DNA of 64,000 nt from the NCBI GenBank assembly GCA_037133555.1, contig JBAXNW010000011.1, positions 8,971 to 72,970 of the forward strand, given 5' to 3'. Source of the stretch: Bacteroidota bacterium (GTDB lineage Bacteria; Bacteroidota; Bacteroidia; Bacteroidales; JACABE01). Positions 39,555 to 64,000 of this stretch are shown here, in pieces. The notes under the pieces are model-generated. The model did not search any database, had not been told where the DNA came from, and worked only from the letters and a program-made list of their open reading frames with translations. How positions within the stretch are numbered: position 1 is the first letter of the stretch; each line of letters opens with the position of its first letter. The position numbers and the translations under genes were made by a program.

Positions 39555-39594
39555 TTTTTTAAAGAATTAAATTAAACATTATTATTTTGTACTA

Positions 39595-39602: not shown

Positions 39603-39694
39603 ATACATAATTTATTCAAAATAATATTTTTTAAAAAAATATTTTACTTTATTTTGTTAATTGAGATTTACCCCAAAGCCAATTAATCCAATTT

Positions 39695-39729
39695 AAAAAG
39701 GCTGATATTTAAAAAATACCAGCCTTTTT
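39695..39729 (-). terminator. Terminator hairpin of paralog 4
   Basis: AAAAAGGCTG(A)TA / TA(C)CAGCCTTTTT stem with one mismatch, ~22 nt past the stop at 39751. Confidence 0.7.
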
Positions 39730-39750
39730 GAATGTCAGTCTAAAAATAAT

Positions 39751-41577
39751 TTATCGTTTTACAACTATTAATTTTTCAGTAGCTTGAGCAGTTGATGTTT
39801 TTAACGTTACGAAATAAGTACCGCTTGTTAAATTTGATAAATCGATATCAAGCGTATAATTTCCTTTGGCTTTCATACCCTGATTCATCGTTTTGACAGT
39901 TCTGCCCATTATATCTGTAATATAAATTTCAGCCTTTTCGTTCTTCTTCATTTCATAAGAAATCTGTGTAGTAGTATTGGCAGGATTAGGCATACAAGTA
40001 AATAATGAAATATCTTTGTTTAATTCATTCATACCCACAATGCCATCCCAATGTTCATTCTGATTGAAAACTGTACGAATCATCATGGCGGCAACATTGC
40101 CACTTTGCCAGATATACCAGGTATTGGCAGTTGGATCAAAATAAAGTGAAGTTTGTTCCCATTGAGGAATTCCAGTGTTATCTGCAGCTATTTTAACTGT
40201 ATCAGTTCCACCAAAAACTTGAATACCTGCAAAATATAAAGAATCTTTTTGCATAGTATATCCTGCAGAAAAAGCAAGGTTAATAGAAGGAGGATTGACG
40301 CCGCCTGCTGCTGGGACATTTGCTGCAGTTATGTAATAGTTTGACGATTGAGCAACAATGGTTCTTGTACCGGTAGCTGCAAAATATTTATACAATACAG
40401 CTTTTATTTTTGAACCTACTTTAGTTTCATTATTAACAACACAATTAATCCCATAAGCCATTCTATCCTGATTTACCTGAAAACGATTCGTTGCAGTATA
40501 AGGATCAGATAAGGTTCCTGTTGCACCAGCCCACCTTGAACCATCGTAAGTGTTATTATCTCTTGAATATTTACAAGTATCGCAAACTATTTTAATGCTG
40601 AATGTATCTTGTGCTAAATGCGGGATAGAATCACTGGAAATATAAGAGGTTACTTTATAGGTACCTACTGTTGTTGAAGGTGTATAAAAATAATCATTTA
40701 AAATAAACCAGTCAGCAAGGCTTGTGTTTGAAAGTAAGGTTGTATCACTACTAGTAGAATCAGCTCCGGTAGTTAAATCGACACCATGTAATTTTACATG
40801 TGTTTGTGTAATAGCACCAAAATTTGAGATATCGGCATCACAATACATAGGTCTTCCTAATCCTTTTGGAATCTGGGTATAACCATCGTGGAAAGTAACT
40901 CTATCGGCAGTTAAATTGCTGTTAACCATGCTTCCAACAAAAACATCGTCAACATCTAAACTGGCACCATCTGAACCTTGGTATTGAAAAGCAACTTTAA
41001 AATTTGTACTAGTAGCATAATTGTTCAATAAAATTAGTTTTTGATAGTAGGTAAAACTTGTGAATGTACCAGCACTATCCTCTGTAAATACAGTAGTCCA
41101 GTTAGTACCTCCATCAGTACTGACCTTTACGCGGAAATCATAATTATTATATGGACTTACACCCCAATAATAACTCATATTCCACCAGAATTTCAAACAA
41201 GGATTGCTTATAGTGGATAAATTAATTGAAGGTGAAATCAACCATTCATTTTGAGGTGCCAAAGCAGGATCATATTCTACAAAAGCACTTTTGGTTCCGG
41301 TGTGTGCACCAGTTCCGACTTTCCATTGATAAAGAGCATTGGTTGTCCCGTTTTGCTTTACCCATCCAGTTGGAGGAAAAGTAGTCCCTTCAAATCCTTC
41401 GTTTAATAACACTGCTTTTGAGTTAGAAAGGATATTTTTTTCAAAGTATTGTTGAAGACTTTGACATTTCCCTTCCTGAATAGGATTTGTTTTTGAAGGC
41501 CTAACACTAACGTTTTGACCAAAGCTTAACGTGCTGCAAATTGCAAGCAATACAATAGAAGATAAAAACTTTTTCAT
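39751..41577 (-). CDS. T9SS-sorted secreted protein, paralog 4 of 4, with a different (canonical choice-of-anchor-J-like) N-terminal domain
   Basis: 608 aa. Residues 1-55 and ~225-608 are collinear with paralogs 1-3. Residues ~56-215 (EGFEGTTFPPTGWVKQNG ... VSTDGGTNWTTV ... LDVDDVFVG) are unrelated in sequence to the corresponding part of the others. Confidence 0.85.
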   Translation of the reverse strand: MKKFLSSIVLLAICSTLSFGQNVSVRPSKTNPIQEGKCQSLQQYFEKNILSNSKAVLLNEGFEGTTFPPTGWVKQNGTTNALYQWKVGTGAHTGTKSAFVEYDPALAPQNEWLISPSINLSTISNPCLKFWWNMSYYWGVSPYNNYDFRVKVSTDGGTNWTTVFTEDSAGTFTSFTYYQKLILLNNYATSTNFKVAFQYQGSDGASLDVDDVFVGSMVNSNLTADRVTFHDGYTQIPKGLGRPMYCDADISNFGAITQTHVKLHGVDLTTGADSTSSDTTLLSNTSLADWFILNDYFYTPSTTVGTYKVTSYISSDSIPHLAQDTFSIKIVCDTCKYSRDNNTYDGSRWAGATGTLSDPYTATNRFQVNQDRMAYGINCVVNNETKVGSKIKAVLYKYFAATGTRTIVAQSSNYYITAANVPAAGGVNPPSINLAFSAGYTMQKDSLYFAGIQVFGGTDTVKIAADNTGIPQWEQTSLYFDPTANTWYIWQSGNVAAMMIRTVFNQNEHWDGIVGMNELNKDISLFTCMPNPANTTTQISYEMKKNEKAEIYITDIMGRTVKTMNQGMKAKGNYTLDIDLSNLTSGTYFVTLKTSTAQATEKLIVVKR

Positions 41578-50040: not shown

Positions 50041-50048
50041 TATATTTG
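50041..50048 (+). promoter_or_regulatory. Candidate -7 box TATATTTG for the giant gene
   Basis: Fits TAnnTTTG, 48 nt upstream of the ATG at 50096. A small palindrome GCTAAA-CCGA-TTTAGC (50012-50027) lies just upstream. Confidence 0.4.
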
Positions 50049-50095: not shown

Positions 50096-53000
50096 ATGAA
50101 AAAATTATTCTTTCTTTTGATTTCGGTATTGTTTACGGTATATTTACCAGCGCAGACTGTTGTTGTTTTACAGGAAAATTTTGAATCGACTTCAGTTAAT
50201 CTTACATCTTCTGCCGATTCTGCCGGGTTTTCAATAACCAATTTCCAGCCTTGGGCCGCATCAACTTATTTGTACAAATCAGGAGTTAAGGCAGATTCAA
50301 ATATACTACAATCTGGAAAAACAATTTATTTAACCTCACCATCATTTTCTACCATCGGTAAGACATTCGTAATACTTGAATTTGCTCAAATATGCAAATT
50401 ATATTATACTGATGGTGGTGTTGTTCAGGTTTCTATTGATGGTGGTACTAGCTGGACTTCATTACTTCCAGGCCAATATTTAGGAAGTGGTAACTTAATT
50501 TTGAACGGGGCTGATTATAAATTTTCCGAAAGTGCTTACTCTACCTGGAACTTGGGCGATACCCTCACAAAGCCCAGCAATAACTGGTGGAAAAATGAGG
50601 CGTTTAATATTTCATCTATTGCAGCAAACCAAGCCAGTGTAAAAATCAGATTCAAATATACAAGCTCGGGAAACCCACTAGGTTTGGGGAGATATGGCTG
50701 GCTCTTAGACGATGTTAAAGTAACAGCTGCAAATAATGAAATTTTTCCTCCAAAGATTACATTTGTTGCTCCTGTTCATAAAGATTCAGTTTATATTACT
50801 GGCCCAATAAGTATTAGTGCATGGGTAAAAGACTCGTCTGCTATTGGGAGTGTAAATTTGATTTATTCTGTCAATGGAGGTAGCAATATTACATTGCCAA
50901 TGACCAATGTGAGCGATTCTCTGTACAGAGCCGATTTAGGTTCTTTTCCCTATAATACTGTTATTTGTTATAGTATTCAGGCAGCAGATATTTATAATAA
51001 TGTTTCAACATTACCTGCAACTGCTTGCCAGCAGTTTATCATAACCAAAGGCATTCCAACTATTCAGGTAGGCACTGGTGTATCAAGCGGAACAACTACG
51101 CCCATATATACAGCAACTACAGCAGGACCTTATTATAGCTATTATGCTACGATATTGACAAAGAGCCAGGTTGTATCCGGTGGAACTATTGAATCGCTCG
51201 CATTTAATAAATTGGATGCAAATGGTTATAGCTTAAATAACGGAGTAATGCGGATTTATGCAAAAACAGTCGCAGATTCCATTGCTCCTATAACATGGGC
51301 AGCTTATTCAGCTGCAAAAGCATCAGCAACAAAAATATATGAAAGTACAACACAAAATATAAATACATCAGCAGGTTGGCAGACATTTAGCTGCAACACC
51401 GGTTTACCTTTCCAGTATTCAGGAAGCGATCATATATTATTGTTTGTGGAGTTTTATCGTCCCGGTGCTATGACTGGTACAGCTGCTTTCCAATACACAA
51501 CAGTTACTAATCAGGCAAGTATTTTCTATGGCACCGCTGCCGTTCCAACTACAACAAATACAGCAGGGCTTAAAGCCAATGTAAAGATAAACTTTGAATC
51601 AAGTACTCAGGCTGTTGATACCAAGGTTTCATTATTTACAAATCCACTTGGAAGTTCAACAGTAATTGCTAACACAAGCATTCCTGTATCTGTAAAAATT
51701 AAGAATTTAGGAACTACAGCAATAACCTCAGCCAATGTTGGCTGGTCAGTTGATGGTGTATATCAGACTACAGTGCCATGGAGTGTAACAACAAGCTTAT
51801 TGCAGGATTATATTTCTTTAACAAGTATAAATTTGGGTAATTACAGTTTTCCATTGGGACCTCATACTATCAAAGCATGGACAAATATGCCCAATAACCT
51901 TGTTGACCAGAATCCTGCCAACGACACATTATCTATTAACATTTACAGTTGTCAGAATTTAAATGGAATAATTACAGTAGGTGATCTTACTTCTGATTTT
52001 CCAACTTTTGCAGGTTTATTTACTGCATTGGGCAATTGTGGCGTGAATGGTCCTGTTACAATTAAAGTTAAATCTGGTACCTATAATCAACAATTGACAA
52101 TACCTTATATTGCCAATGTATCAGCAATCAACACCATAACCTTCCAGTCAGAATCAGGTAACCTGACTGATGTTATATTCTCTTATGGTGCAGCAGGTAC
52201 TGCCGATAACTGGGTGTTAAAGTTTGACGGCTCACAATATATCAAAGTGAAGAATATGACTTTTAAAGCAACCGGTGCCACCTATGCATATGTTGCATTA
52301 TTAGCTAATGCAGCAAGTTATAATACAATAGAAGGATGCCGCCTGGAAATGAATGCAGGAATTACTTCCACTTCTTCAGCTGGAGTTTACAATGCAAGTA
52401 CCTATAATGAAAATTACAACACTATTAAAAACAATACCATTGTTAATGGCTATTATGGGATTTATTTATATGGTTCATCAACCACATCTCCAAAAGAAAC
52501 AGGTAATGTTATTGATGGCAATACCTTATCGGGAATTTACTATTATTCAATTTTTTCTTATAGTCAGGATAGTATTACTATAAAAAGTAATTCGACTCAA
52601 AATATGTCTAGTGCATCTTATGCCTATGGTATATATTCATATTATAATAGCAACTTAATATATATTAAAAATAAATTTGTCTGCAATGCAACAACCTATA
52701 ATTATTGCATGTATGTAAATTATCCAAATAATACAACCGGTACAGGTTTGATTGCAAATAACATGGTTAGTCAAGCAACAGGAACTTCAACTACCTACGG
52801 ATTATACCTATATTCTGGAAATAATGTAAATGTTTATAATAATTCTGTCAATATTACCGGAGTTTATACATCTGGTTATGCAATGTATATTTATGCAGGT
52901 TCAAATAATAATATTGTAAATAATATCTTCAGTAATACAGGGGGTGGTTATGCTTTATATGGATCTTCCACAACAGGTATTAATATTTGCAATTACAATG

Positions 53001-56000
53001 ATTGGTATACTACTGGAGCAACGCTTGCCTATTGGGGTGCTGCAAGAACTAATTTAGCAGCGTTACAGACTGCAAGTGGCAAAGATGTAAACTCAATAAG
53101 TATTAATCCTCAATTTACAGCCTGGAATAATTTACATATTAATAATAGTTATTTATTCAATTTAGCAGCTAAGGGAACTTCATTACCTCAGGTTACAGAT
53201 GATTTTGATGGTGAGCCAAGAGCTAGTATTCCTTTTATAGGTGCTGATGAATTTCCTTTCCCCCAGAATGACGCCGGATTAGTTGCTATTACTCAGCCTC
53301 CAACAATGCTACCTAGTTTAACTCAGGACATAAAAGTAAGCATACAAAATATCGGACAATTACCTTTAACTTCAGTAAGCATTAAATGCCTTGTAAATGG
53401 TGTATTGTTACCGAGTGCTACCTATACAAATACTATCGGTTTAGCTCAATTCGGAGTAGATTCATTGGTAATTGCCCCTGCTTATACATTCCCTGCAGGC
53501 TATTCACAAATAAAAGTATATACACAATCACCTAATAATGTAGCTGATACCTATAATGGAAATGACACTTTATATAAATCAGTCTATGCCTGTACTGGAA
53601 CCTTATCAGGAACATACACCATTGGAGGCACAGGCGCAAATTACCCAAGTGTTGATGCAGCTATTGTTTCATTACAATGCGGTATTTCAGGACCGGTTGT
53701 TTTTAATATTAATCCAGGCACCTACTCAGGAAGTTATATTTTGCCAAATGCAACAGGTGCTTCGGCCTCAAATACCATTACTTTTAAATCCGCTAATAAT
53801 GACAGTACAAGTGTGATCCTTCAGTATAATGCTGCAGGAACAGCTGACAATTTTGTATTGAATATTAATAACGTAAGTAATTATATTTTTAAAGGGATTA
53901 GTTTGAAAGCAATCAATGCTACCAATGCGAACGTGATTACATTGGCTGGTACTTTATCCAATATCAGTATTCAAAATTGTATACTGGAAGGAACACAAGC
54001 TACAAATACTGATGATAATCAAGTACTTATCCGTTGCAATACATTGACTCAGATTACTGGGTTTAACCTGATTTCAAACAGGATGAATTATGGCAGAATG
54101 GCAATTAATTTTACATCTACCAATCCATCAACCGGAGTTGTGATGAAGTACAATAATATGTATAACCAATCAGCCAGACCAATGTATCTGGCTAAAATCG
54201 ATGCATTAGATTTTGGATACAATAATTTGTTCAGCGATGCCACCAAAACAGGTAATGGTGGAATATTTACCAATGCCCTAACCGGAGCTTTCAAATTTTA
54301 CAACAATACACTTATCAATTTAGGCGGTGTCCGTGTATGGGAAGGCTGGACCTATGGTGGTACAACTGCTGGTAGTGAAGCTTTGGTTTATAACAATTAT
54401 TTATATGGAAGTCCGGTTTCAAGTTATGTATTTGATGGAGGTGGTGCTGTAAACAATATTAAATTCTATCATAATACTTTCGTAGGAAATTCAACTTCAA
54501 GAACTGTAAACTTTAACAACTTTTATGGAGCAAATGTAAATTTGACATTTAAAAATAATATAATGGCGTCAACAGGTCAGTTGTTGTATTTTACAGCTCA
54601 GCCTACTGCACCATTTGTAATTGATTATAATGATTATTATTCAACAGGAGCTAGTTGGGCCTATTTTTGGGCAACCACAGCTACTAATTTAGCAACTGTA
54701 AAAACAGCTTCAACACAGGAATCGCATTCTATGTCAATAAATCCACAATTTGCAGGAACTACTGATTATCATATTACCAATTATGCATTAAAAGGATTAG
54801 CATCTCCAGTTCCTGAAGTATTAACAGATATTGATGGACAACTAAGAAGTCTTACAGCTCCAGATCCTGGATGTGATGAATTAATGGTGTATAGTAATGA
54901 TGCCAGTATTGCTTCATTTGCTCAGGGAACCATTTGTCCCGGACTTACCAACGTTACTGTTAAGCTTAAAAATCTTGGTTCAAATGCATTAACTACTGTT
55001 AATGTAAACTGGAGTATTAATGGTGTTGTTCAAACTCCTGTTGCTTATTCAGGTTCTTTAGCGACTTTGGCTGATTCCAATATATTTTTAGGGAATTATA
55101 TTTTCTTATCCATGACTCCTTACAATCTGAAATTCTGGTCATCTTCACCTAACGGAACTAATGATGGTAATACAGCTAATGATACTTTATCATTTAATAA
55201 TATGTATACCGGCCTTGCTGGAGGAAGTTATTTAGTTGGAGACTCAACTTCTGATTTTTTGAGTTTGACTACAGCTATTAATTTTATTTCTTCGAACGGA
55301 ATTTGTGGCCCTGTAGTTTTCAATATCAAACCGGGTACTTATACAGGAAGGTATACCATCCCGGCTATTTTAGGTAGTTCAGCTGTGAACACTATAACCA
55401 TAAAATCTCTTGCCAACGACAGTAATTCTGTAACTTTGGCAGCTACAGCCAGCGGAACAACTGATAACTGGATCGTCAAATTGAGTGGTGCAAAATATGT
55501 TACACTGAAGAATCTTAAGTTTACTCCTTTAAATACAACTTATGCCAATGCTATCTTAGTCAATAATACATCAAAATTCAATACTATTGTTGGAAATTAT
55601 CTTGTTTCAACAGCTGTAGCATCCGGATTTGAAGTATCATTAATCCGTATTGATGATAATAACAGTTCTGATAATTATGTTATAGGAAATCACACAGTTG
55701 GAGGTGGTTCAGGAATTTTAATCAGAGGAAGCAGCACAACTGCCCGGATTGACAGAATTACAATTTCGAAGAATATTATCGAAGGATATGCACAATGGGG
55801 TGTCCGCTCAGAGTATGCCAATTCTCCGATTATTGATTCAAATGTAATGACTTCTAATATATCATTGATCGAAAAGCATGGTGTATCATTAAGTTATAAT
55901 TACGACACTATCGTTGTAAGCAGAAACACAATTTATTTATCAAATTATACCAATTTAAGAGGTATTGATATGGGTAATTGTACATCATCTGCATCAACTA

Positions 56001-59000
56001 GATCTTTGTTAAAAAATAATTTTATTACATTATCTGGTGCTTCAGGATCAACAAATACTTATGGAATCCGACTTTATCCTGCGACAACATATTGCAGGGT
56101 TCTTAATAATTCAATCAATGTTGTTGGAACCAACTTAACTGATACCAGAGGAATAAACCCTGCTGGTACAAGTACTAATATTGAAGTGATAAATAACAAT
56201 GTTGTTTGTAATTATTATCCCAGTTTCTATGAAAATACAGTAGTAACCTATGCTGATTATAATAATTATTATTCTACAACAAGTATTTATGCATATAATA
56301 ATGGAACGTCAAATCTAACATATGCCTCACAAGCTTTATTAAATGCAGCTACCTTAAAAGATACGAATACTTTATCAATGGATCCTCAATTTACCAGCTT
56401 TACTGATTTGCATGTCAATAATATCAGTTTATATGCTATGGGAAAACCCTTGTCACAAGTTATCAATGATATTGATAACCAGCCAAGAGCAGCAATTCCA
56501 TGTATAGGTGCAGATGAATTTACTGTATTACCAAATGATGCTAAATTAAGAGCAGTATATACTTTAGGTAGTTTGCCAAAAACTGCAGGATCACCGCATA
56601 ATGTTAAAGCTATTGTTAAAAATGTGGGTTCTACAGTTTTAACCAATGTTGTTGCAACATTAAATATAAGCGGCAGTAATAGTTTTACCAATACTAAAAC
56701 TATTGCCAGCATGATTATTGGAAGACAGGATACCGTTACTTTTGATGCATTTATACCAACTAATTTTGGACCAAATACAGTTAAAGTTTCATTAAATACC
56801 GATAGTGATACTACCAATAATGTGTTGAATTATGCTCAAACTGTTACTGATACTGTTTTTGGAATTGCTGATACTTCAAAACCAAGCGCTTATGTAGGAT
56901 TCGGAACAGCTTCTGGTAAAATGTATACAAAATATTTTGTAAACGGGACCAAAATACTCCATTCCATCAGTGCATATATCTCTAAAGACAATACGATAGG
57001 CAAGCAATTGTATGCAATTGTTTTAAATTCAAATGGAGTAGCCGTTGATTCTTCAGCTATAAGAACAATAACAGCCAGTGATACGAATACCTGGGTTCAA
57101 TTTAATGTATTAAACCCGCCTTCAACCTCAACGGCCAATAATTATTTCTATGCTGGGATTGCTCAGATAGCCAATGCATCAACATTTAATCCAATTGGAA
57201 GTCAGACTGAAAATCCCGCCAGACCAGGTGCTTATTATTCTTCCGCTATCAATGGCAGTGGATTAACACAAAGAACGGACCTTGGAAGACTCATGATCAA
57301 TGCTAATATTGGGGATCCGACCAATAAAGATGCTTCAACAATCAATATATTATCTCCAATATCCGGTTGTGGTTTAACAGCAAATGAAACAGTAAGTATT
57401 GTCATTCAAAACAAAGGATTGGATACCATTTATGGAGGACAAAATGTATTAATGGCCAGATATGGCAAAAAAGTAAATGGAAATATTATAAATATTGTAT
57501 CTAAACAAATTACGGACACCATATTTCCTTCAGCCACTAAAAACGTAAGCTTCAGTGTACCGGTTAACGTTTATGCTCCTACAGCGGATTCAACCTATCA
57601 TTTAGTTGCATGGGTTGAATTAGCAGCAGATCCATTTGCAAGCAACGACTCCATCAATTTTGACATTCTATCTAAATATACACCTTCGGCTCCTTCATCA
57701 AATAATGTATCCATTGCTTATGGTTTTCCTGCAACATTAACTGCTGTTTCAAATGATACAATTAATTGGTATCACCAGGCTATCGGAGGAACTAAAATTG
57801 CTGCCGGACCTTCTTATACAACTCCATATTTGTTTGCCTCAGATACCTTATGGGCGGAAGCGATTACTAAATTTTCAGGTACTACTATAATTGGAACAGG
57901 AATTACGACATCTACTTCAGCAGGTTATACTCCATTTTATACTTTATACAGAGATAGTAGAAACCAAATTTTATTTCTGGCAAGTGAATTACTGGCAGCA
58001 GGTATTGTTCCTGGAAATTTAACAAATTTGGCAATTAATGTTTCTTCAATAGGCAGTCCTGCAATGACAAATTTTGAGATTGCAATAAAAAATTCTACGG
58101 TATCTGCACTAAGCACAACTTATGAAACAGGATTTACACCGGTTTATTCTAATGCTGCCTATACTCCTGCAAGTATAGGCTGGCAGGATTTTATTTTTAG
58201 TTCCCCTTTTTATTGGGATGGTACTTCAAACCTAATCGTTCAGATGTGTTATGGTGATAATGCCAGCTATACTTCATCATCAGGAGTTTATTATTCAGCT
58301 ACAACTTTCAATAGTCATCATTATGGATATATGGATGCAGGCACAGGTTGTACAATGACGGCTCCAACTTATAATTATATTGGCACTTATCGACCAAATA
58401 TCAGATTCAATTATTCAAAAGATGGATGTACAAGTCCAAGAACAAAAGTTGTGGTTACTGTTGCAGCTCCACCAGCCAATGAAGTCGCAATGGTAGCATT
58501 TACAAGTCCAACAGGGCCGGTTCCTGCAAATACCACAACACCCATCAAGGTTAAAGTTAAAAACACAGGATTACTTCCATTAACATCAGTTAAAGTGAAC
58601 TATATTGTTAACAGCGTTTTACAACCACAATATCCTTGGACCAATACAACTACTCCTTTACAACATGATTCTATTATGGAGTTAACCATTGGTTCATTCT
58701 CATTACCGGGTGGTTTAGATACTATTATTGCCTGGACTTCGATGCCAAATAATATTGCGGATCCTTATCCATTGAATGATACAACTAAAATCTATTTCTC
58801 TACATGTATGTCTGGTAATTATACCATTGGTGTTGGGAAAAATTTCCCAACGTTTACTGCTGCTTTAAATGCAGCAACATTGGCAGGTGTATGCGGGAAT
58901 ACGGTTTTCCTTGCTGATTCCGGTTTGTATGAAGAACGATTGTTCCTGAATCCAATACCTGGTGCAGGTCCTAATGCAAGAGTTAGTTTTACCTCAGCAA

Positions 59001-62000
59001 GTGGTGACAGTACAAAAGTTGTCTTACATTATACCCTTTCCAGTGCAGCTGCATGGGCGATGAAATTCATAGGTTCTTCTTATATTACTTTCTCAAAAAT
59101 GACCTTGTCGGTTTCGGGAAGTAATACCTGGGGTCGTATCATGGAATTAGGACCCAATGCAAATCATATTGAAATCTCAAACTGCGTGTTGGAGGGTATG
59201 CAAGGTGGTACTACGAGTAATTATACTTTAATCTATATGAGTGGTGCCGGGATAAATTACAATACGATTAAAAACAACTTAATCTTAAATGGTTACCAGG
59301 TACTCTATCTTTACGGTGTAAGTGGAAACACAAATATTAAGAATACTATCAGCAATAATAACATCAAAGATTTTACTTATTATGCAATTTATGCTGCCTA
59401 TCAGGATAGTATTTCAATCATTGGTAACAACATTCAGAATATTGCAGGTGCTTCTTATGCTTACGGTTTGTATTCTTATTATTGTAACAATTTTAGTTAC
59501 CTGAAAAATAAAATTAATATAAACGCTACCTATAATTATGGGATGTATTTATATTACAACAATAATACATATGGTAGCGGTTTAGTAGCCAACAACTTTG
59601 TTAGTCAGTCGGTTGGTACTTCAACTACTTATGGTATTTATGCCTACTATAGCAACAATGTGAATTATTATTACAACTCTATTAATATTACCGGTGCCTA
59701 TACCTCAAATTACGCATTCTATATTTATGGAGCTACAGCTGCCAATAATAATATTGTCAACAATATCTTTAGCAATACAGGAGGTGGATATGCTTATTAC
59801 GCATCGTCTACAACAGGTGTAAATATAAGCAATTACAATGATTTGTATGCAACAGGAACTAATCTAGGGTATTGGGGTGGTGCAGCAACTTCTTTAGCTG
59901 CATTTAAATCACTCAGTGGTAAAGATGCCAACTCCATTTCAGTAAATCCTGGATTCTTCTCATTAACTAATTTGCACATGGTGAACTTCATGATTGATAA
60001 AATGGGAACACCTATTGCAGGAGTTACTGATGATATTGATGGCGATGTTAGAAATGCAACATTGCCTGATATGGGAGCTGATGAGTTTAACCTGCCTGAT
60101 AACGATGCCGGTATTACTGCGATGACTTTACCTGTAAATCCAACAACAACGGGTGTTCAAGATGTAAAAGTTTTATTGAAAGACTGGGGTGTGCTTAATT
60201 TAACTACAGTTACTATCCAATGGAGTGTAAATGGAGTCATGCAATTGCCTAAACTTTGGACTGGGAATAAACTTTCAGGTGAAGTGGATACTGTTCTTTT
60301 AGGTACCTATAATTTCACAGCAGGTCAATCAGCTATGAAATTCTGGACTTCGATGCCAAACAATGTGGCAGATCAGTTAAATATCAATGATACGCTTTTA
60401 ACGAGTGTTTTGGTCTGTAACGGAGCTTTAAGTGGCAGCTATACATTAGGCGGATCTTCAGCTAATTATGCTACATTCAACGGAGCTCTTCAGGCTTTGC
60501 AGATGTGCGGAATTGCTGGTCCTGTGACGTTTAATGTGGCACCTGGATTTTACAATGAACAATTTGTAATAGGTAATTTAACAGGAGTATCAGCAAGCAA
60601 TACCGTTACTTTTAAGTCGGCCAATGGCGATAGCACAAGTGTTGTTCTTGGATTCAACTTTACGCAAACCAATAACAACTATGTCATCCAATTTGGTGCC
60701 GGTGCCCAGTATATTACCATTAAAGGTATGACCATCCGACAAACCAATACAGCAAGTGGAAGAGTCATTAACTTTACAGGTTCTCCATCTAACATTACGA
60801 TAGCCAATAACAGAATTGAGATGCCATTTAATTCAGCTGGTACTACTGCCGGCGTTGTAACTTTAAGTTCTGATTTTGGTAATGATAATAAAATTCTGAA
60901 TAATAATATTTCTACTGGTTATAATGGTATTGTAGCACAGGGTTCTGCAGCTACACCAGCATTGAGAACTTTGATAAAAGGAAATATTATAACAGGTTTC
61001 TATAATTATGGTATACAATGTACCTATTTAAATTCTCCAATTATTGATTCTAATACTGTTGTTTCAACAGTCAGTGGTTCAGGTACTCGAGTTGGAATAT
61101 ATATGAGTAGTGTAACGGATTCTATGAAAGTTAGCAAAAACACTATTGTCTTATCAAATTCAACAAATACTTATGGAATTCAGTTAGAAACGGTTACAGG
61201 AACACCAATATCTAAAGGATTGCTTGCAAATAATTTTGTAAGCATCTTAAATGGGACCACATATACTTATGCATTAAGATTATATCCAGCAATTAATTAT
61301 GTTGTAATTGCAAATAATTCTATTTATGTCAATGGGACAAGTACTACCGATACCAGAGGTATAAACGTTGTTGCAGGAAGTAATATTGAAGTATATAATA
61401 ACAATGTTGTTTCTAAATATTTCCCGACTTTATATGAAGGTAACTTAACTCCAATATTAGGATCTAATTACAACAACTTCTATTCTCTTTCAAGTACCTA
61501 TGCATACTTCAACAATGTTTCAACACTTACTTACAATTCATTGGCTGCTTTAAACGCTGTTATCCATATGGATACCAATTCAGTTTCAGTAGATCCAGAT
61601 TTTATAAGTACAACGAACCTACATGTATATACTTCTGCAGTTAACAATTTAGCTAAACCATTACCTTATGTCACTGATGACATTGATGGACATCCCAGAA
61701 ATGCTACAACACCAGATATCGGAGCCGACGAATTTTCTCCTTTGCCTGTTGATTTGGCTGTAACTGCATTTATAGAACCTTCAAATTTCTATGCTCAGGC
61801 AGGTGCTACAATTCCAATCAAAGTTAAAATCAAGAACTATGGTGCTGATAGTGTTGCTAACTTCAATGTAGTATGTAAAATTGGAAATGCTACACCTATT
61901 GTACAGCTATATACGAATTATTTCCACTCCAACCAATTGGATTCAGTTTTATTCACCAGTATCACAGTACCTTCCGGCGCTTTCGAAATTAAAGTTTACA

Positions 62001-63802
62001 CCTCAGATGCCAATGATGGGAATCATTTGAACGACACCTTAAAAATGAATTATTTTGGGGTGCCTATTAAAAACATTCCTTATGCTGAAAACTTTGACAA
62101 TACGGTTCAAGAATGGTTTTCTCCTGAATCAACCAGCCTTTGGGAACATGGTATTCCAATTGCATCGGTGATAAATACTGCGCACAGTGCTCCTAATGTA
62201 TGGGCTACCAAACTGAATGGCAACTACACCAACAGCAATATCAGTACGCTTTATTCACCTATCTTCAACATTGCCGTTTTCAGAGCTGATACCTTGAAAT
62301 TCTGGCATTGGGTAGATGCAGAAATCAACAAAGATGGTGGTCATATTGAATACCTGGATAATATGGGTAACTGGGATGTATTGGGTCATATCACACCGGC
62401 AGATACAAATGCTGCTAACTGGTACAATGGCTCAATACTGAATATGTGGACAGGATACAGTGCTGGATGGTACGAATCAAAATACAAGGTTAGCAATCTA
62501 ACAAATCTTGGTAGCACCGTACAATTCAGATTTGTATTTGCTTCGGATGCAACAAATAGCAGTTATAACGGATGGGCCATTGATGATTTTGCATTGACTT
62601 TAGCTCCTATTCCAGCTGATGCAGGCGTAATTGCAATCACTTCACCTGCTGCAACTTCTCTGGTTGGCGATTTGGTTACCGTAAGTGTTACCGTTAAAAA
62701 CTTTGGTACCGATACTTTGACTAACATTCCTGTTAAATATCAGGTGGGTAGTTTAGCTGTTGTTTCAGGCATATTGGCCGGTCCACTGGCTCCATTGGCA
62801 ACTAGCAACTATACCTTTAGCCAGCAAGTGCAGGTTGCAAATATAAATTATACTATCTGTGCTTTTACAACTGTTGTGGGTGATATTTATACACAAAACG
62901 ACATTAGTTGTAAAAATATAATTGTAAATCCTGCACCCAATGATGTAGCGGTTACCGAAATACTTCAACCCGGTGCGAATGTCAGTGGTTCTACTACTCT
63001 TATTAAAGTTGTCATCAAAAACTTTGGAACGCTTACTCAAACCTCTATTCCTGTAACTTATCAAAGAGGAGCCCTCACTCCGGTGAATGCCATTTGGACT
63101 GGTAGTTTAGCTTTCGGTGATACGGTTCAATTTACATTCCCAAGTCCTATGAATATTCCTTCAGGTGTTTCATTCAGTTTATGTGGTTTTACTAAATTGG
63201 TCAATGATGCTTATATTCATAATGATTCTTCATGTAAGTCAGTTGTGATTTGTACAGTTGCTCAGGCAGGTATTATCAGTGGACCTACAAGTGTAGGAAG
63301 TGGTGCTACAGGTGTTGCATATTCTGTACCAACTATTTTGAATGCTACCACTTATGTTTGGACCTATACTCCTTCAACTGGTGTTGTTATTCATGGAAAT
63401 GGAACATCTTCAATCACCATCGATTTTGGTGTAGGTTCACTTAATGGTGTTTTATCAGTATATGGACAGAGTTCAGTTTGTTCGGGTTCTCCTTCATCGA
63501 TAAATATTGCAACCAATGTTGGTATCAACGACATCGATGGAAGTAATTTCTGGTTAGGTCAGAACACACCCAATCCAACTACAGGGCTTACCAATATTGA
63601 ATACAACTTGCCGCTGGCTGGTGAAGTTAAATTTGATATCGTCAACCTTTACGGTCAAAAAGTCTATACTTCTGATGAAAAAGTAGAAGCAGGCACACAT
63701 AGGATTGACTTAAACGTAAATGATTTAGCTGCCGGTGTATATTATTATACCATTGAATTCAAAGGCAAACGCCTTGTGAAGAAGATGGTGGTAAATAAAT
63801 AG
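50096..63802 (+). CDS. Giant (4568 aa) T9SS-sorted multidomain surface protein: MAM-like domains, ~10 CARDB-like modules, 5 parallel-beta-helix supermodules, Por C-terminal sorting domain
   Basis: Uninterrupted 13.7-kb ORF with an ATG start and signal peptide MKKLFFLLISVLFTVYLPAQ. Repetitive N/G/T/Y-rich beta-helix rungs (e.g. NNIVNNIFSNTGGGYA). C-terminal NPTTGLTNIEYNL...GVYYYTIEF...KKMVVNK fits the T9SS CTD. A terminator hairpin lies 20 nt downstream. Confidence 0.9.
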   Translation: MKKLFFLLISVLFTVYLPAQTVVVLQENFESTSVNLTSSADSAGFSITNFQPWAASTYLYKSGVKADSNILQSGKTIYLTSPSFSTIGKTFVILEFAQICKLYYTDGGVVQVSIDGGTSWTSLLPGQYLGSGNLILNGADYKFSESAYSTWNLGDTLTKPSNNWWKNEAFNISSIAANQASVKIRFKYTSSGNPLGLGRYGWLLDDVKVTAANNEIFPPKITFVAPVHKDSVYITGPISISAWVKDSSAIGSVNLIYSVNGGSNITLPMTNVSDSLYRADLGSFPYNTVICYSIQAADIYNNVSTLPATACQQFIITKGIPTIQVGTGVSSGTTTPIYTATTAGPYYSYYATILTKSQVVSGGTIESLAFNKLDANGYSLNNGVMRIYAKTVADSIAPITWAAYSAAKASATKIYESTTQNINTSAGWQTFSCNTGLPFQYSGSDHILLFVEFYRPGAMTGTAAFQYTTVTNQASIFYGTAAVPTTTNTAGLKANVKINFESSTQAVDTKVSLFTNPLGSSTVIANTSIPVSVKIKNLGTTAITSANVGWSVDGVYQTTVPWSVTTSLLQDYISLTSINLGNYSFPLGPHTIKAWTNMPNNLVDQNPANDTLSINIYSCQNLNGIITVGDLTSDFPTFAGLFTALGNCGVNGPVTIKVKSGTYNQQLTIPYIANVSAINTITFQSESGNLTDVIFSYGAAGTADNWVLKFDGSQYIKVKNMTFKATGATYAYVALLANAASYNTIEGCRLEMNAGITSTSSAGVYNASTYNENYNTIKNNTIVNGYYGIYLYGSSTTSPKETGNVIDGNTLSGIYYYSIFSYSQDSITIKSNSTQNMSSASYAYGIYSYYNSNLIYIKNKFVCNATTYNYCMYVNYPNNTTGTGLIANNMVSQATGTSTTYGLYLYSGNNVNVYNNSVNITGVYTSGYAMYIYAGSNNNIVNNIFSNTGGGYALYGSSTTGINICNYNDWYTTGATLAYWGAARTNLAALQTASGKDVNSISINPQFTAWNNLHINNSYLFNLAAKGTSLPQVTDDFDGEPRASIPFIGADEFPFPQNDAGLVAITQPPTMLPSLTQDIKVSIQNIGQLPLTSVSIKCLVNGVLLPSATYTNTIGLAQFGVDSLVIAPAYTFPAGYSQIKVYTQSPNNVADTYNGNDTLYKSVYACTGTLSGTYTIGGTGANYPSVDAAIVSLQCGISGPVVFNINPGTYSGSYILPNATGASASNTITFKSANNDSTSVILQYNAAGTADNFVLNINNVSNYIFKGISLKAINATNANVITLAGTLSNISIQNCILEGTQATNTDDNQVLIRCNTLTQITGFNLISNRMNYGRMAINFTSTNPSTGVVMKYNNMYNQSARPMYLAKIDALDFGYNNLFSDATKTGNGGIFTNALTGAFKFYNNTLINLGGVRVWEGWTYGGTTAGSEALVYNNYLYGSPVSSYVFDGGGAVNNIKFYHNTFVGNSTSRTVNFNNFYGANVNLTFKNNIMASTGQLLYFTAQPTAPFVIDYNDYYSTGASWAYFWATTATNLATVKTASTQESHSMSINPQFAGTTDYHITNYALKGLASPVPEVLTDIDGQLRSLTAPDPGCDELMVYSNDASIASFAQGTICPGLTNVTVKLKNLGSNALTTVNVNWSINGVVQTPVAYSGSLATLADSNIFLGNYIFLSMTPYNLKFWSSSPNGTNDGNTANDTLSFNNMYTGLAGGSYLVGDSTSDFLSLTTAINFISSNGICGPVVFNIKPGTYTGRYTIPAILGSSAVNTITIKSLANDSNSVTLAATASGTTDNWIVKLSGAKYVTLKNLKFTPLNTTYANAILVNNTSKFNTIVGNYLVSTAVASGFEVSLIRIDDNNSSDNYVIGNHTVGGGSGILIRGSSTTARIDRITISKNIIEGYAQWGVRSEYANSPIIDSNVMTSNISLIEKHGVSLSYNYDTIVVSRNTIYLSNYTNLRGIDMGNCTSSASTRSLLKNNFITLSGASGSTNTYGIRLYPATTYCRVLNNSINVVGTNLTDTRGINPAGTSTNIEVINNNVVCNYYPSFYENTVVTYADYNNYYSTTSIYAYNNGTSNLTYASQALLNAATLKDTNTLSMDPQFTSFTDLHVNNISLYAMGKPLSQVINDIDNQPRAAIPCIGADEFTVLPNDAKLRAVYTLGSLPKTAGSPHNVKAIVKNVGSTVLTNVVATLNISGSNSFTNTKTIASMIIGRQDTVTFDAFIPTNFGPNTVKVSLNTDSDTTNNVLNYAQTVTDTVFGIADTSKPSAYVGFGTASGKMYTKYFVNGTKILHSISAYISKDNTIGKQLYAIVLNSNGVAVDSSAIRTITASDTNTWVQFNVLNPPSTSTANNYFYAGIAQIANASTFNPIGSQTENPARPGAYYSSAINGSGLTQRTDLGRLMINANIGDPTNKDASTINILSPISGCGLTANETVSIVIQNKGLDTIYGGQNVLMARYGKKVNGNIINIVSKQITDTIFPSATKNVSFSVPVNVYAPTADSTYHLVAWVELAADPFASNDSINFDILSKYTPSAPSSNNVSIAYGFPATLTAVSNDTINWYHQAIGGTKIAAGPSYTTPYLFASDTLWAEAITKFSGTTIIGTGITTSTSAGYTPFYTLYRDSRNQILFLASELLAAGIVPGNLTNLAINVSSIGSPAMTNFEIAIKNSTVSALSTTYETGFTPVYSNAAYTPASIGWQDFIFSSPFYWDGTSNLIVQMCYGDNASYTSSSGVYYSATTFNSHHYGYMDAGTGCTMTAPTYNYIGTYRPNIRFNYSKDGCTSPRTKVVVTVAAPPANEVAMVAFTSPTGPVPANTTTPIKVKVKNTGLLPLTSVKVNYIVNSVLQPQYPWTNTTTPLQHDSIMELTIGSFSLPGGLDTIIAWTSMPNNIADPYPLNDTTKIYFSTCMSGNYTIGVGKNFPTFTAALNAATLAGVCGNTVFLADSGLYEERLFLNPIPGAGPNARVSFTSASGDSTKVVLHYTLSSAAAWAMKFIGSSYITFSKMTLSVSGSNTWGRIMELGPNANHIEISNCVLEGMQGGTTSNYTLIYMSGAGINYNTIKNNLILNGYQVLYLYGVSGNTNIKNTISNNNIKDFTYYAIYAAYQDSISIIGNNIQNIAGASYAYGLYSYYCNNFSYLKNKININATYNYGMYLYYNNNTYGSGLVANNFVSQSVGTSTTYGIYAYYSNNVNYYYNSINITGAYTSNYAFYIYGATAANNNIVNNIFSNTGGGYAYYASSTTGVNISNYNDLYATGTNLGYWGGAATSLAAFKSLSGKDANSISVNPGFFSLTNLHMVNFMIDKMGTPIAGVTDDIDGDVRNATLPDMGADEFNLPDNDAGITAMTLPVNPTTTGVQDVKVLLKDWGVLNLTTVTIQWSVNGVMQLPKLWTGNKLSGEVDTVLLGTYNFTAGQSAMKFWTSMPNNVADQLNINDTLLTSVLVCNGALSGSYTLGGSSANYATFNGALQALQMCGIAGPVTFNVAPGFYNEQFVIGNLTGVSASNTVTFKSANGDSTSVVLGFNFTQTNNNYVIQFGAGAQYITIKGMTIRQTNTASGRVINFTGSPSNITIANNRIEMPFNSAGTTAGVVTLSSDFGNDNKILNNNISTGYNGIVAQGSAATPALRTLIKGNIITGFYNYGIQCTYLNSPIIDSNTVVSTVSGSGTRVGIYMSSVTDSMKVSKNTIVLSNSTNTYGIQLETVTGTPISKGLLANNFVSILNGTTYTYALRLYPAINYVVIANNSIYVNGTSTTDTRGINVVAGSNIEVYNNNVVSKYFPTLYEGNLTPILGSNYNNFYSLSSTYAYFNNVSTLTYNSLAALNAVIHMDTNSVSVDPDFISTTNLHVYTSAVNNLAKPLPYVTDDIDGHPRNATTPDIGADEFSPLPVDLAVTAFIEPSNFYAQAGATIPIKVKIKNYGADSVANFNVVCKIGNATPIVQLYTNYFHSNQLDSVLFTSITVPSGAFEIKVYTSDANDGNHLNDTLKMNYFGVPIKNIPYAENFDNTVQEWFSPESTSLWEHGIPIASVINTAHSAPNVWATKLNGNYTNSNISTLYSPIFNIAVFRADTLKFWHWVDAEINKDGGHIEYLDNMGNWDVLGHITPADTNAANWYNGSILNMWTGYSAGWYESKYKVSNLTNLGSTVQFRFVFASDATNSSYNGWAIDDFALTLAPIPADAGVIAITSPAATSLVGDLVTVSVTVKNFGTDTLTNIPVKYQVGSLAVVSGILAGPLAPLATSNYTFSQQVQVANINYTICAFTTVVGDIYTQNDISCKNIIVNPAPNDVAVTEILQPGANVSGSTTLIKVVIKNFGTLTQTSIPVTYQRGALTPVNAIWTGSLAFGDTVQFTFPSPMNIPSGVSFSLCGFTKLVNDAYIHNDSSCKSVVICTVAQAGIISGPTSVGSGATGVAYSVPTILNATTYVWTYTPSTGVVIHGNGTSSITIDFGVGSLNGVLSVYGQSSVCSGSPSSINIATNVGINDIDGSNFWLGQNTPNPTTGLTNIEYNLPLAGEVKFDIVNLYGQKVYTSDEKVEAGTHRIDLNVNDLAAGVYYYTIEFKGKRLVKKMVVNK
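50159..50728 (+). other. N-terminal MAM/choice-of-anchor-J-like domain of the giant protein (approximate bounds)
   Basis: LQENFES... VQVSIDGGTSWTSL ... VKIRFKYTS ... YGWLLDDVKVTA parallels the YGWAIDDVELF domain of the four paralogs. Confidence 0.6.
51950..53254 (+). repeat. Beta-helix supermodule A (aa 619-1053)
   Basis: Begins C..LNGIITVGD...FAGLFTALGNCGVNGPVTIKVKSGTY and ends ...DDFDGEPRASIPFIGADEF. Collinear with and clearly similar to module D. Confidence 0.7.
53591..54883 (+). repeat. Beta-helix supermodule B (aa 1166-1596)
   Basis: Begins CTGTLSGTYTIGGTGANYPSVDAAIVSLQCGISGPVVFNINPGTY and ends ...DIDGQLRSLTAPDPGCDEL. Confidence 0.7.
55202..56521 (+). repeat. Beta-helix supermodule C (aa 1703-2142)
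   Basis: Begins MYTGLAGGSYLVGDSTSDFLSLTTAINFISSNGICGPVVFNIKPGTY and ends ...DIDNQPRAAIPCIGADEF. Confidence 0.7.
58805..60088 (+). repeat. Beta-helix supermodule D (aa 2904-3331), a copy of A
   Basis: CMSGNYTIGVGKNFPTFTAALNAATLAGVCGNTVF ... NNIVNNIFSNTGGGYAYYASSTTGVNISNYNDLY ... DDIDGDVRNATLPDMGADEF. Long stretches align residue-for-residue with A. Confidence 0.7.
60416..61735 (+). repeat. Beta-helix supermodule E (aa 3441-3880), with a B-like head and C-like tail
   Basis: The head CNGALSGSYTLGGSSANYATFNGALQALQMCGIAGPVTFNVAPGFY...SASNTVTFKSANGDSTSVVL matches B. The tail ...YLNSPIIDSNTVVS...TDTRGINVVAGSNIEVYNNNVVSKYFPTLYE... matches C. Confidence 0.65.
62078..62606 (+). other. Second MAM-like domain of the giant protein (approximate bounds)
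   Basis: PYAENFDNTVQEWF ... WATKLNGNYTNS ... DGGHIEYLDNMGNW ... VQFRFVFASDATNSSYNGWAIDDFALTLAP. Confidence 0.6.
63540..63799 (+). other. Por/T9SS C-terminal sorting domain of the giant protein (approximate bounds)
   Basis: SNFWLGQNTPNPTTGLTNIEYNLPLAGEVKFDIVNLYGQKVY...LAAGVYYYTIEFKGKRLVKKMVVNK. Confidence 0.8.
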
Positions 63803-63821: not shown

Positions 63822-63849
63822 AAGGGCTGTTATTGATTTAGCAGCCCTT
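63822..63849 (+). terminator. Intrinsic terminator of the giant gene
   Basis: AAGGGCTG / CAGCCCTT 8-bp GC-rich stem with a 12-nt loop, followed by a T-rich tract. 20 nt past the stop. Confidence 0.7.
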
Positions 63850-64000
63850 CTTTATTTATAATCAATTGATTAAAGAATTACTTACAGCAAAAATGCAAAA
63901 TTTGATGCTATATTTAAATCTAGTGCATCATAAAAAAAACTATATTTGAAAAAAATTAAAAGGAATTTTCAATGTATTTAAATCTAGCTACCAAATCAAT

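Follow-up and report, generated by a model that had tools for sequence, protein, structure and literature searches.

We identified, in the 64,000-nt stretch of DNA analysed here (the window), a single 13.7-kb open reading frame (ORF) whose 4568-residue product is probably a non-enzymatic, adhesin-like cell-surface fibre. [quoted passage not shown] A surface adhesin or fibre is the best-supported reading, whereas several alternatives considered below are less probable. The product is an ordinary kind of protein that leaves the current understanding of T9SS cargo and adhesins unchanged; its family is so far undescribed. In uncultured Bacteroidales, much of the coding capacity goes to giant surface proteins, which probably dictate the attachment targets of the cells in anoxic lake water and sediment.

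The ORF (50096..63802, plus strand) starts with ATG, has zero internal stops and encodes a protein of ~477 kDa, in line with the first-pass annotation, which had read it as one gene. That annotation had also named mis-assembly of shorter paralogs as the finding that would overturn it. The gene is indeed internally repetitive, but its DNA repeats reach at most 72% identity over 244 nt, making repeat collapse unlikely. P0074, a 4558-aa ortholog from an independent MAG, aligns collinearly over its full length (residues 1–4568 against 1–4558, 70.2% identity) and has the same domain counts. Two further orthologs are syntenic, the one from Lac Pavin being open throughout; a contig from the same species is collinear with the gene across 10,990 nt; and the identical protein is recorded on two contigs (50–200 kb), one of them 104 kb long with 43x coverage. 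In the closest relative, an apparent 580-nt frameshifting deletion, which might have signalled pseudogenisation or mis-assembly, proved to be a 100-N scaffold gap within module A. This gap and the internal repetition are what speak for paralogs joined via repeats; given the collinear orthologs and the identical-protein records, such an artefact has next to no probability. The 4568-residue gene is real, with no mis-assembly.

Downstream of a signal peptide, we resolved 24 domains. A MAM-like jelly roll, Big_7 and the X1 domain are followed by three CARDB and beta-helix pairs; the middle part runs CARDB, J, CARDB, Ig_7 and X2, then two further CARDB and beta-helix pairs; and the C-terminal part comprises CARDB, a second MAM-like jelly roll, two CARDB, PKD_6 and a type A T9SS C-terminal sorting domain (CTD). 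The features, all on the plus strand, are as follows.

50096..50155 (+), Sec signal peptide, aa 1–20, MKKLFFLLISVLFTVYLPAQ, read by eye from the sequence
50156..50743 (+), JR1, MAM-like jelly roll, aa 21–216; sub-threshold Reelin_subrepeat-B, NF038112 region
50744..51043 (+), Big_7 Ig-like domain, aa 217–316; PF17957, E 2.2e-5, 25.4 bits, cut-off 24.1
51044..51613 (+), X1, jelly roll of an uncatalogued family, aa 317–506; by homology to X2
51614..51946 (+), CARDB-like 1, aa 507–617; PF07705 22.7 bits (equal to the cut-off), own HMM 107 bits
51947..53260 (+), beta-helix A, aa 618–1055; Beta_helix 7.6e-11, NosD, AF2 model
53261..53590 (+), CARDB-like 2, aa 1056–1165; own HMM and Pfam comparison
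53591..54889 (+), beta-helix B, aa 1166–1598; self-comparison
54890..55210 (+), CARDB-like 3, aa 1599–1705; own HMM 98 bits, individual Pfam match absent
55211..56527 (+), beta-helix C, aa 1706–2144; self-comparison
56528..56845 (+), CARDB-like 4, aa 2145–2250; own HMM and Pfam comparison
56846..57346 (+), J, ~167 aa in a CARDB–CARDB 'slot', aa 2251–2417; ortholog alignment
57347..57673 (+), CARDB-like 5, aa 2418–2526; own HMM 83 bits
57674..57874 (+), Ig_7 (CHU_C-associated Ig-like), aa 2527–2593; PF19081, 4.2e-9, 37 bits
57875..58465 (+), X2, second X jelly roll, aa 2594–2790; homology to X1, AF2
58472..58801 (+), CARDB-like 6, aa 2793–2902; own HMM and Pfam comparison
58802..60094 (+), beta-helix D, aa 2903–3333; self-comparison
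60095..60415 (+), CARDB-like 7, aa 3334–3440; own HMM
60416..61741 (+), beta-helix E, aa 3441–3882, the most strain-divergent segment; self-comparison
61742..62062 (+), CARDB-like 8, aa 3883–3989; own HMM and Pfam comparison
62063..62608 (+), JR2, second MAM-like jelly roll, aa 3990–4171; HMM and family-level profile
62609..63253 (+), CARDB-like 9 and 10, aa 4172–4277 and 4279–4386; own HMM, copy 9 PF07705 25.3 bits (above the cut-off)
63254..63505 (+), PKD_6, aa 4387–4470; PF19408, 3.4e-10, 40.6 bits
63557..63802 (+), type A T9SS CTD, aa 4488–4568, with the stop codon; PF18962, TIGR04183

This map, which can now steer segment-wise structure and binding studies, recovered with tools each element that the first-pass annotation had named by eye, and that annotation's layout was essentially right. 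The domain HMM scan and segment-wise structure prediction that it had proposed gave matches to Beta_helix, CARDB and Por CTD but not to Pfam MAM, and confident AF2 models of module A (pLDDT 92.8) and X2 (pLDDT 91.2). The annotated N-terminal signal peptide and Ig-like domain (now Big_7) held up, as did the ~180-aa 'IQVGTG' domain followed by a CARDB-like module (X1 and CARDB-like 1) and the terminal PKD-like module and Por CTD. The ~750-aa central block does contain the predicted Ig-like module (Ig_7), but is not a single block: it resolves into CARDB, J, CARDB, Ig_7, X2 and CARDB. Across the whole protein, Pfam matched CARDB, PKD_6 (4389–4468), Por_Secre_tail (4492–4566), Ig_7 (2530–2591), Beta_helix and, weakly, Big_7. 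The NCBIfam scan of the whole protein returned zero matches at E <= 0.01 because length affects the E-value filters; the isolated CTD passes TIGR04183. Neither scan of the protein matched an enzyme or toxin family, in agreement with the earlier statement that no catalytic or toxin motif is evident. A polymorphic toxin was rejected, as the C-terminus is a CTD and a toxin domain is absent.

The predicted signal peptide, MKKLFFLLISVLFTVYLPAQ, combines, when read by eye, a basic n-region with a hydrophobic core and an A-Q cleavage context, and this N-terminus is kept in the orthologs L041 (97% identity) and L042 and in a downstream paralog. At the other end, the CTD scores above both curated cut-offs (PF18962, 38.5 bits against 27, aa 4492–4566; TIGR04183, 43.1 bits against 23), which bears out the annotated T9SS sorting signal. 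We found no match to a type B CTD (TIGR04131 or CHU_C) in the protein. The window encodes at least five proteins with a type A CTD, which lends indirect support to a T9SS in the genome. Not all type A cargo stays anchored; some is released. As described in PMC9143113, type A cargo loses its CTD and becomes covalently linked to A-LPS.

By our own HMM, each of the ten CARDB-like modules is homologous to the others. Taken singly, two of the ten reach the PF07705 cut-off of 22.7 bits, seven match at E <= 0.015 and three are unmatched, while the whole protein scores 58.2 bits. The annotated CARDB-like separators and the two modules near the C-terminus were all recovered with our own HMM. Self-comparison also supported the five supermodules, each ~435 aa and each with the conserved head and D.DG..R...GADEF tail first described by eye. 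Modules A and D form one pair by likeness, and C and E another.

AF2 predicts module A as a right-handed parallel beta-helix. Its closest solved structures in Foldseek are carbohydrate-active enzymes, namely GH136 lacto-N-biosidases, a PL9 pectate lyase, CE8 pectin methylesterases and PL6 lyases. It is therefore conceivable that single modules bind a substrate or even catalyse a reaction. Extended to the whole chain, this likeness would make the protein a multi-catalytic polysaccharide-degrading mega-enzyme, with the beta-helices as lyases, hydrolases or esterases and the CARDB and jelly-roll domains as carbohydrate-binding modules. The JGI label 'pectin methylesterase-like' on the homolog P0052 and the frequency of stand-alone versions of the module as T9SS cargo point the same way. 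The structural matches are generic, however (TMq 0.25–0.57, 8–14% identity), with the adhesin PfbA and phage tailspikes among them; what the enzymes, PfbA and CBA120 TSP3 have in common with module A is the right-handed parallel beta-helix fold, with zero shared catalytic residues. No HMM of a beta-helix CAZyme family (PL1/3/6/9, GH28, GH136, CE8) matched, leaving the generic Beta_helix, NosD and TIGR03804 repeat models. Among 87 modules, the helix-body columns conserved at >= 85% hold only N (an Asn ladder), G, S and Y; no conserved acidic or basic residue occurs in the helix body across these 87 modules and 37 stand-alone homologs. The conserved charged residues of the 87 modules are confined to the C-terminal cap, as an H/D/D/R/D/E cluster. 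On the absence of a CAZyme family match and of conserved catalytic residues, we rejected a CAZyme array and regard the mega-enzyme as improbable.

The jelly rolls are the candidate binding domains of the fibre. JR1 and JR2, annotated as MAM-like, do not match PF00629 (MAM). Among 47 copies of the JR family, 16 match InhA-like_MAM, 18 Reelin_subrepeat-B and 2 MAM, and the JR profile finds Reelin (2e-11) and InhA (8.5e-6) in the PDB. By these profile matches, JR belongs to the InhA-MAM/Reelin jelly-roll superfamily; 'MAM-like' is right at that level, and not for Pfam MAM. The 'IQVGTG' domain recurs as X2, which is homologous to X1, a relationship that had been missed on first reading, as had the J domain. 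The X domain has zero Pfam or NCBIfam matches. Word-index searches with X2 alone or with a 58-sequence slot alignment found one fragment, P0062, and exhaustive HMMER searching was needed to recover the family: 5826 cluster representatives at E <= 1e-3, with up to six full-length copies in one protein among the matches listed. A domain so widespread, yet lacking a model in either database, deserves one.

X2 is predicted to be a jelly roll. Its best BFVD match is the phage protein A0A6J5NL19 (TMq 0.74, rmsd 2.4 Å, 22% identity), itself uncharacterised, with weaker matches (TMq about 0.45–0.5) to phage proteins named collagen-repeat, pectate-lyase-superfamily and minor tail. We group A0A6J5NL19 and the weaker collagen-repeat and minor-tail matches as jelly-roll domains of phage tail-associated proteins that resemble X2 in fold. 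Against the PDB (TM <= 0.47), X2 resembles phage baseplate proteins, ConA-type lectins and CBM6. J has zero matches in Pfam, NCBIfam or the PDB; twelve orthologous copies share 42–80% identity, and hhalign detected no kinship between J and X (probability 0.2%). PDB profile searches with slot alignments A1 and A2 were uninformative because both mix unrelated jelly-roll domains, and cleaner profiles of X (A5) and J (A7) gave nothing meaningful against the PDB. An IcmE/DotG match from the X and J profile searches lacked a significant stretch and was discarded. It is the fold resemblance to lectins, CBMs and phage proteins (PDB TM <= 0.47) that suggests the jelly rolls may bind ligands.

From these elements we propose the following assembly of the fibre. 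The protein would be exported via Sec, fold in the periplasm into 24 globular domains and cross the outer membrane through the T9SS, guided by its type A CTD. The CTD would then be cleaved off and the new C-terminus joined to anionic LPS. Such a linkage would place the cassette of MAM-like domain, two CARDB and PKD_6 next to the cell, and the MAM-like domain, Big_7 and X1 at the distal tip. The five capped beta-helices, ten CARDB and three Ig-like domains may serve as rigid spacers, and the jelly rolls JR1, X1, J, X2 and JR2 as lectin-like binding heads. Heads mounted on spacers in this way could bind glycans, particles or other cells multivalently. Such a fibre might reach a total length of roughly 100 nm.

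Uncultured Bacteroidales have a family of giant, recombining paralogs to which the protein belongs; this multigene family with swappable slots, and its mosaic divergence, had gone unnoticed on first reading. Genomes carry several such paralogs, in some cases in tandem, and GEVED, MAM, LTD, F5/8-type-C, DUF7402, Cleaved_Adhesin and CBM domains occupy equivalent slots, a pattern to be expected if a fixed scaffold carries exchangeable binding heads. A dN/dS of 0.15 shows purifying selection on the gene and, together with the full-length orthologs, indicates that the chain is maintained over its entire length. Even so, the gene has diverged in a strongly mosaic way within a 99%-identical genomic background: module E has 78% amino-acid identity to the MAG of the same species (dS 0.69), and its part at 61101–61700 is nearer to the Lac Pavin ortholog. 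The family behaves as a cassette-swapping, recombining repertoire.

Multiple, partly tandem paralogs, domain swapping and mosaicism would also suit a protective or variable surface coat, a dense layer of paralogs that diversifies against phages or grazers or acts as decoys. The phage homolog of X and its weak fold likeness to phage tail-associated proteins fit such a coat too. Against it, every domain has a dN/dS of 0.04–0.22, so positive selection is not seen at this resolution, and the mosaicism could be due in part to strain-mixed metagenome assemblies. A coat in place of an adhesin seems rather unlikely to us, although the two are compatible and not mutually exclusive.

The surroundings of the gene offer candidate regulatory signals and the start of a further gene.

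50041..50048 (+), TATATTTG, candidate -7 promoter (Bacteroidota TAnnTTTG), 48 nt 5' of the ATG
63822..63849 (+), intrinsic-terminator-like hairpin with T run, 20 nt 3' of the stop; 1 found, 0.1 expected
63973..64000 (+), start of a TPR sensor histidine kinase gene (MYLNLATKS...), truncated by the window end

The upstream neighbour is cysD, and TATATTTG lies in an AT-rich intergenic region of 673 nt. It is weak evidence for a promoter because TAnnTTTG occurs 125 times in the window, where 103 occurrences would be expected, and is too frequent to be informative; a sigma-70 scan is unsuited to Bacteroidota. On the source contig, the downstream order is a histidine kinase (671 aa), a LuxR response regulator (220 aa), a REC protein (152 aa) and a second giant paralog (4312 aa), and the two giant genes occupy about 27 kb. 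The first-pass annotation had missed both the two-component system and the second giant gene. The adjacent two-component system may regulate the 4568-residue gene.

This arrangement raises a broader and more tentative possibility, to which we give about one chance in a handful: that the gene and its tandem partner form a recombining 'lectin-display' fibre repertoire. Its conserved scaffold would read JR, Big_7, slot, [CARDB-BH]n, [CARDB-Ig_7-slot]n, JR, two CARDB and CTD, and paralogs and strains would trade binding heads as well as entire segments with one another. The TPR kinase and LuxR regulator, encoded between both giants, would select which fibre is made, and X would be a large uncatalogued lectin-like family that phages carry as well. 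If true, anoxic freshwater Bacteroidales would possess a programmable surface-recognition system.

The proposed surface fibre invites comparison with several known systems. SprB and RemA of Flavobacterium johnsoniae are likewise giant surface proteins that Bacteroidota secrete by the T9SS, and they too have multiple paralogs, a likeness that could suggest a mobile adhesin moved by the gliding motor. Their CTD is type B, whereas that of the present protein is type A, neither type B nor CHU_C; Pfam finds zero SprB repeats in it, and cysD upstream and the histidine kinase downstream leave no adjoining PorP/SprF-like gene. We therefore rejected an SprB homolog and consider a gliding adhesin very improbable. 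Closer relatives of single modules are stand-alone right-handed beta-helix T9SS cargo proteins (450–790 aa) of Bacteroidota, Ignavibacteria and Calditrichia, which share the module at 25–52% identity, including its N-terminal head and its DLH...D(I)DG..R...GADE(F) tail. They consist of one module and a CTD, whereas the 4568-aa protein strings five modules and CARDB spacers into one chain.

Fibrillar adhesin-like proteins provide the parallel to the chain as a whole. By the PMC8286594 definition, the protein has an anchor (a signal peptide and Por_Secre_tail, which is on the anchor list of PMC8286594) and a stalk (ten CARDB-like modules, Big_7, Ig_7, PKD_6 and five beta-helices). The adhesive region of such proteins is usually terminal, and in Bacteroidetes putative binding domains also lie mid-chain (PMC8286594). 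In the present chain, the candidates JR1 and X1 are N-terminal, and J, X2 and JR2 are internal. A domain-based screen would miss the candidate adhesive domains X and J because neither is in any Pfam family. Fibrillar adhesin-like proteins likewise have a very long extracellular chain, a rod of repeated Ig-like or CARDB domains and terminal and middle putative binding domains. The stalk described here differs in that it is no series of near-identical repeats but alternates ten CARDB modules with five complete, capped beta-helices of ~435 aa.

Giant 1 (50096..63802, forward strand) is a single open frame of 4568 codons with an ATG start and no internal stops; this frame and a full-length ortholog confirmed the 4568-aa single ORF of the first-pass annotation. 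Its GC content (~35%) equals that of the flanks. T, N, S, G and Y are abundant in the protein and charged residues scarce; the mature chain has a computed mass of ~477 kDa and a pI of 5.5. Pfam searches of the whole protein identified CARDB, PKD_6, Por_Secre_tail, Ig_7 and Beta_helix, with a weak Big_7 match. Together with segment scans and HMMs made from the internal copies, they recovered the domain order below, supporting the earlier interpretation of a T9SS-sorted beta-helix/CARDB mega-protein.

Domain map of giant 1 (BH, beta-helix supermodule; JR, MAM-like jelly roll; X, jelly-roll domain X; CTD, T9SS C-terminal sorting domain)
aa 1-20, signal peptide
aa 21-216, JR1
aa 217-316, Big_7
aa 317-506, X1 (window 51044-51613)
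aa 507-617, CARDB 1
aa 618-1055, BH-A
aa 1056-1165, CARDB 2
aa 1166-1598, BH-B
aa 1599-1705, CARDB 3
aa 1706-2144, BH-C
aa 2145-2250, CARDB 4
aa 2251-2417, domain J
aa 2418-2526, CARDB 5
aa 2527-2593, Ig_7
aa 2594-2790, X2 (window 57875-58465)
aa 2793-2902, CARDB 6
aa 2903-3333, BH-D
aa 3334-3440, CARDB 7
aa 3441-3882, BH-E
aa 3883-3989, CARDB 8
aa 3990-4171, JR2
aa 4172-4386, CARDB 9 and 10
aa 4387-4470, PKD_6
aa 4488-4568, CTD

Comparing pieces of the protein with the whole revealed five ~435-aa supermodules, A resembling D and C resembling E, each closed by G(A/C)DE(F/L). The CTD is of type A (TIGR04183, 43.1 bits; cut-off 23). All ten CARDB-like copies are mutually homologous (75-115 bits with an HMM of the copies themselves); scanned singly with PF07705, seven reach E <= 0.015 and two the gathering score. 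The jelly rolls had been labelled MAM-like. Pfam MAM does not match them in giant 1, but among 47 family copies InhA-like_MAM matched 16, Reelin_subrepeat-B 18 and MAM 2, and a JR profile picked out of the PDB both Reelin (2e-11) and the MAM domain of InhA (8.5e-6); the label is therefore right at the superfamily level.

A frame of this length could have been mis-assembled from shorter paralogs, the outcome that the first-pass annotation had named as refuting its reading. Several results rule this out. DNA repeats inside the gene reach at most 72% identity over 244 nt, too divergent for collapse or mis-joining to be likely. P0074 (contig JBBRCQ010000025.1), encoded in another MAG and 4558 aa long, aligns over residues 1-4558 with residues 1-4568 of giant 1 at 70.2% identity, with the same domain counts (5 BH, 10 CARDB, 2 JR, 2 X and one each of J, Ig_7, Big_7 and CTD). 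In a Lac Pavin MAG the reading frame of the syntenic ortholog (L042 and L007) is open along its whole extent, and a same-species MAG (contig CAZCBG010000046.1) is collinear with giant 1 along 10,990 nt, with flanks 99.25% identical. The identical protein is recorded on two contigs of 50-200 kb, one being ENA ERZ4224321 NODE_202 (104 kb, 43x coverage). An apparent 580-nt deletion in the same-species gene proved to be a 100-N scaffold gap.

Given 61 homologs as alignment, AlphaFold2 modelled module A (pLDDT 92.8, pTM 0.93) as a right-handed parallel beta-helix that is capped by a helix at its N-terminal end and by a loop-rich region at its C-terminal end. These homologs are chiefly stand-alone 450-790-aa proteins bearing Por_Secre_tail, from Bacteroidota, Ignavibacteria and Calditrichia, and their sole name is 'right-handed parallel beta-helix repeat-containing protein'. 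In the PDB, Foldseek matched module A to GH136, PL9, CE8, PL6 and GH87, as well as to phage tailspikes and to PfbA, a pneumococcal adhesin; with TMq of 0.25-0.57 and identity of 8-14% throughout, the likeness is at fold level only. Across 87 family modules, helix-body columns conserved at >= 85% hold only Asn (as a ladder), Gly, Ser and Tyr; the conserved charged residues (H1014, D1036, D1038, R1042, D1051 and E1052) all lie within the C-terminal cap, and conservation over these modules revealed no conserved catalytic site. The beta-helix modules are probably rigid, non-catalytic rods.

X1 and X2 have no sequence match in Pfam, NCBIfam or the PDB. Searched exhaustively with HMMER, 1.84 billion representatives yielded 5826 proteins at E <= 1e-3, of which 3374 reach <= 1e-10; the best 149 of the 5826 have a median length of 2450 aa. 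Top hits mostly carry two to six full-length copies (maximum six), and X immediately follows the signal peptide in 37 of 154. Shorter proteins join X with PKD, GEVED, CarboxypepD_reg and Por_Secre_tail. Members with a source name stem from Lentimicrobium, Ignavibacteria and Cloacimonadota, and their annotation reads either 'hypothetical' or 'T9SS type A sorting domain-containing'. The X2 AlphaFold2 model is a jelly-roll sandwich (pLDDT 91.2). In the PDB it shows weak similarity (TM <= 0.47) to proteins of phage baseplates and central fibres, ConA lectins, CBM6 and an accessory domain from a polyvinyl-alcohol esterase. In BFVD it comes closest to a Caudovirales protein that is itself uncharacterised (TMq 0.74, rmsd 2.4 A, 22% identity), whereas the weaker matches (TMq ~0.45-0.5) include proteins annotated as collagen-repeat, pectate-lyase-superfamily or minor tail proteins. 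The analysis thereby exposed, as a by-product, a large uncatalogued domain family with no Pfam-A/NCBIfam model and a candidate for a new entry. Domain J (167 aa, 12 orthologous copies) showed no relatives in the PDB and no relation to X.

Searching with the C-terminal cassette yielded 40 loci in MAGs of uncultured Bacteroidales, among them MAGs from Loclat and Lac Pavin lakes, with several loci within one genome and a majority of open frames exceeding 3000 aa or extending past the fetched DNA. The common frame is JR, Big_7, slot, [CARDB-BH]n, [CARDB-Ig_7-slot]n, JR, CARDB x2, (PKD_6), CTD. Slots, positions of ~150-210 aa behind Big_7 or Ig_7 and between CARDB pairs, hold jelly-roll families that vary by paralog: DUF7402, LTD, F5/8-type-C and MAM behind Big_7/Ig_7, and GEVED (13/33), MAM, Cleaved_Adhesin and CBMs between CARDB pairs. 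The arrangement looks like a constant scaffold bearing interchangeable heads. Behind the giant type A gene at two loci (L002 7746-9776, L003 12238-14451) lie 680-740-aa type B (CHU_C) cargo proteins with a legume-lectin or Reelin-subrepeat-like domain and PKD domains.

Measured against the same-species MAG, dN/dS is 0.15 overall and 0.02-0.22 by domain, indicating purifying selection throughout. dS is 0.1-0.2 for aa 217-1598, 0-0.06 for aa 1706-2902 and 0.27-0.69 for aa 2903-4568. Identity is 99.25% in the upstream flank, 99% in flanking housekeeping genes and 99-100% over window 55100-58900, and falls abruptly near the CARDB 6/BH-D boundary to 83-92% over 58900-63800. Over 600 nt (61101-61700), the Lac Pavin ortholog, from a different species, is closest, not the same-species contig. 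This mosaic points to recombination between alleles or paralogs. Strain-mixed metagenome contigs could be the source of part of it.

Upstream and divergent lie cysD and cysN, then genes for an ammonium transporter, a C69 peptidase and an ABC-F ATPase, and past these four tandem type A CTD paralogs (33435-41577, reverse strand; 636, 641, 636 and 608 aa). Pfam found no domain besides the CTD in these four; the fourth (39751-41577, reverse) has a choice-of-anchor J domain (NF038128). Homologs of the tandem paralogs are also present close to giant genes at L032 and L042. Further away, adjacent ORFs of 1060 and 507 aa (18270-22996, reverse) match a SusC/SusD-like pair in size; homologs of the 1060-aa ORF occur in L002 and L007. 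The 673-nt spacer upstream of giant 1 holds TATATTTG, a candidate promoter motif on weak evidence, 48 nt 5' of the ATG, and a terminator-like hairpin lies 3' of the stop codon.

The gene starting at window 63973 matches the TPR histidine kinase downstream of the ortholog. The source-contig order is giant 1, TPR histidine kinase (671 aa), LuxR-type response regulator (220 aa), REC protein (152 aa) and giant 2 (4312 aa), the segment from the kinase to giant 2 spanning window 63973-64000 and L044 23877-33707. Giant 2 shares 50% identity with giant 1 across its initial 1639 aa and a nearly identical signal peptide. The kinase/regulator pair again adjoins giant genes at four further loci (L001, L005, L013 and L019). 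Between giant-gene terminator and kinase gene, an insertion of ~1.4 kb that is absent from the window is present in the same-species MAG (L001 12122-13495, reverse); by eye its product is ~300 aa long and shows a signal peptide, a motif resembling GEVED ('DWGETEDY') and a tail like that of a CTD.

Giant 1 has a Sec signal ahead of 24 folded domains, ends in a type A CTD and is conserved over its full length. For the T9SS it is established that type A cargo, once across the outer membrane, has its CTD removed and is joined to anionic LPS (PMC9143113, PMC10202324). The C-terminus would then be the cell-proximal end; beta-helices, CARDB and Ig-like domains may serve as spacers in a fibre of ~100 nm, and the jelly rolls as lectin-like heads for multivalent attachment. 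By fibrillar-adhesin-like criteria (PMC8286594), giant 1 has the secretion, stalk and anchor features, and its jelly rolls are candidates for the adhesive region. It belongs among the giant T9SS-anchored adhesin-like surface proteins, an already known kind, and its own multigene family is an undescribed, recombining one.
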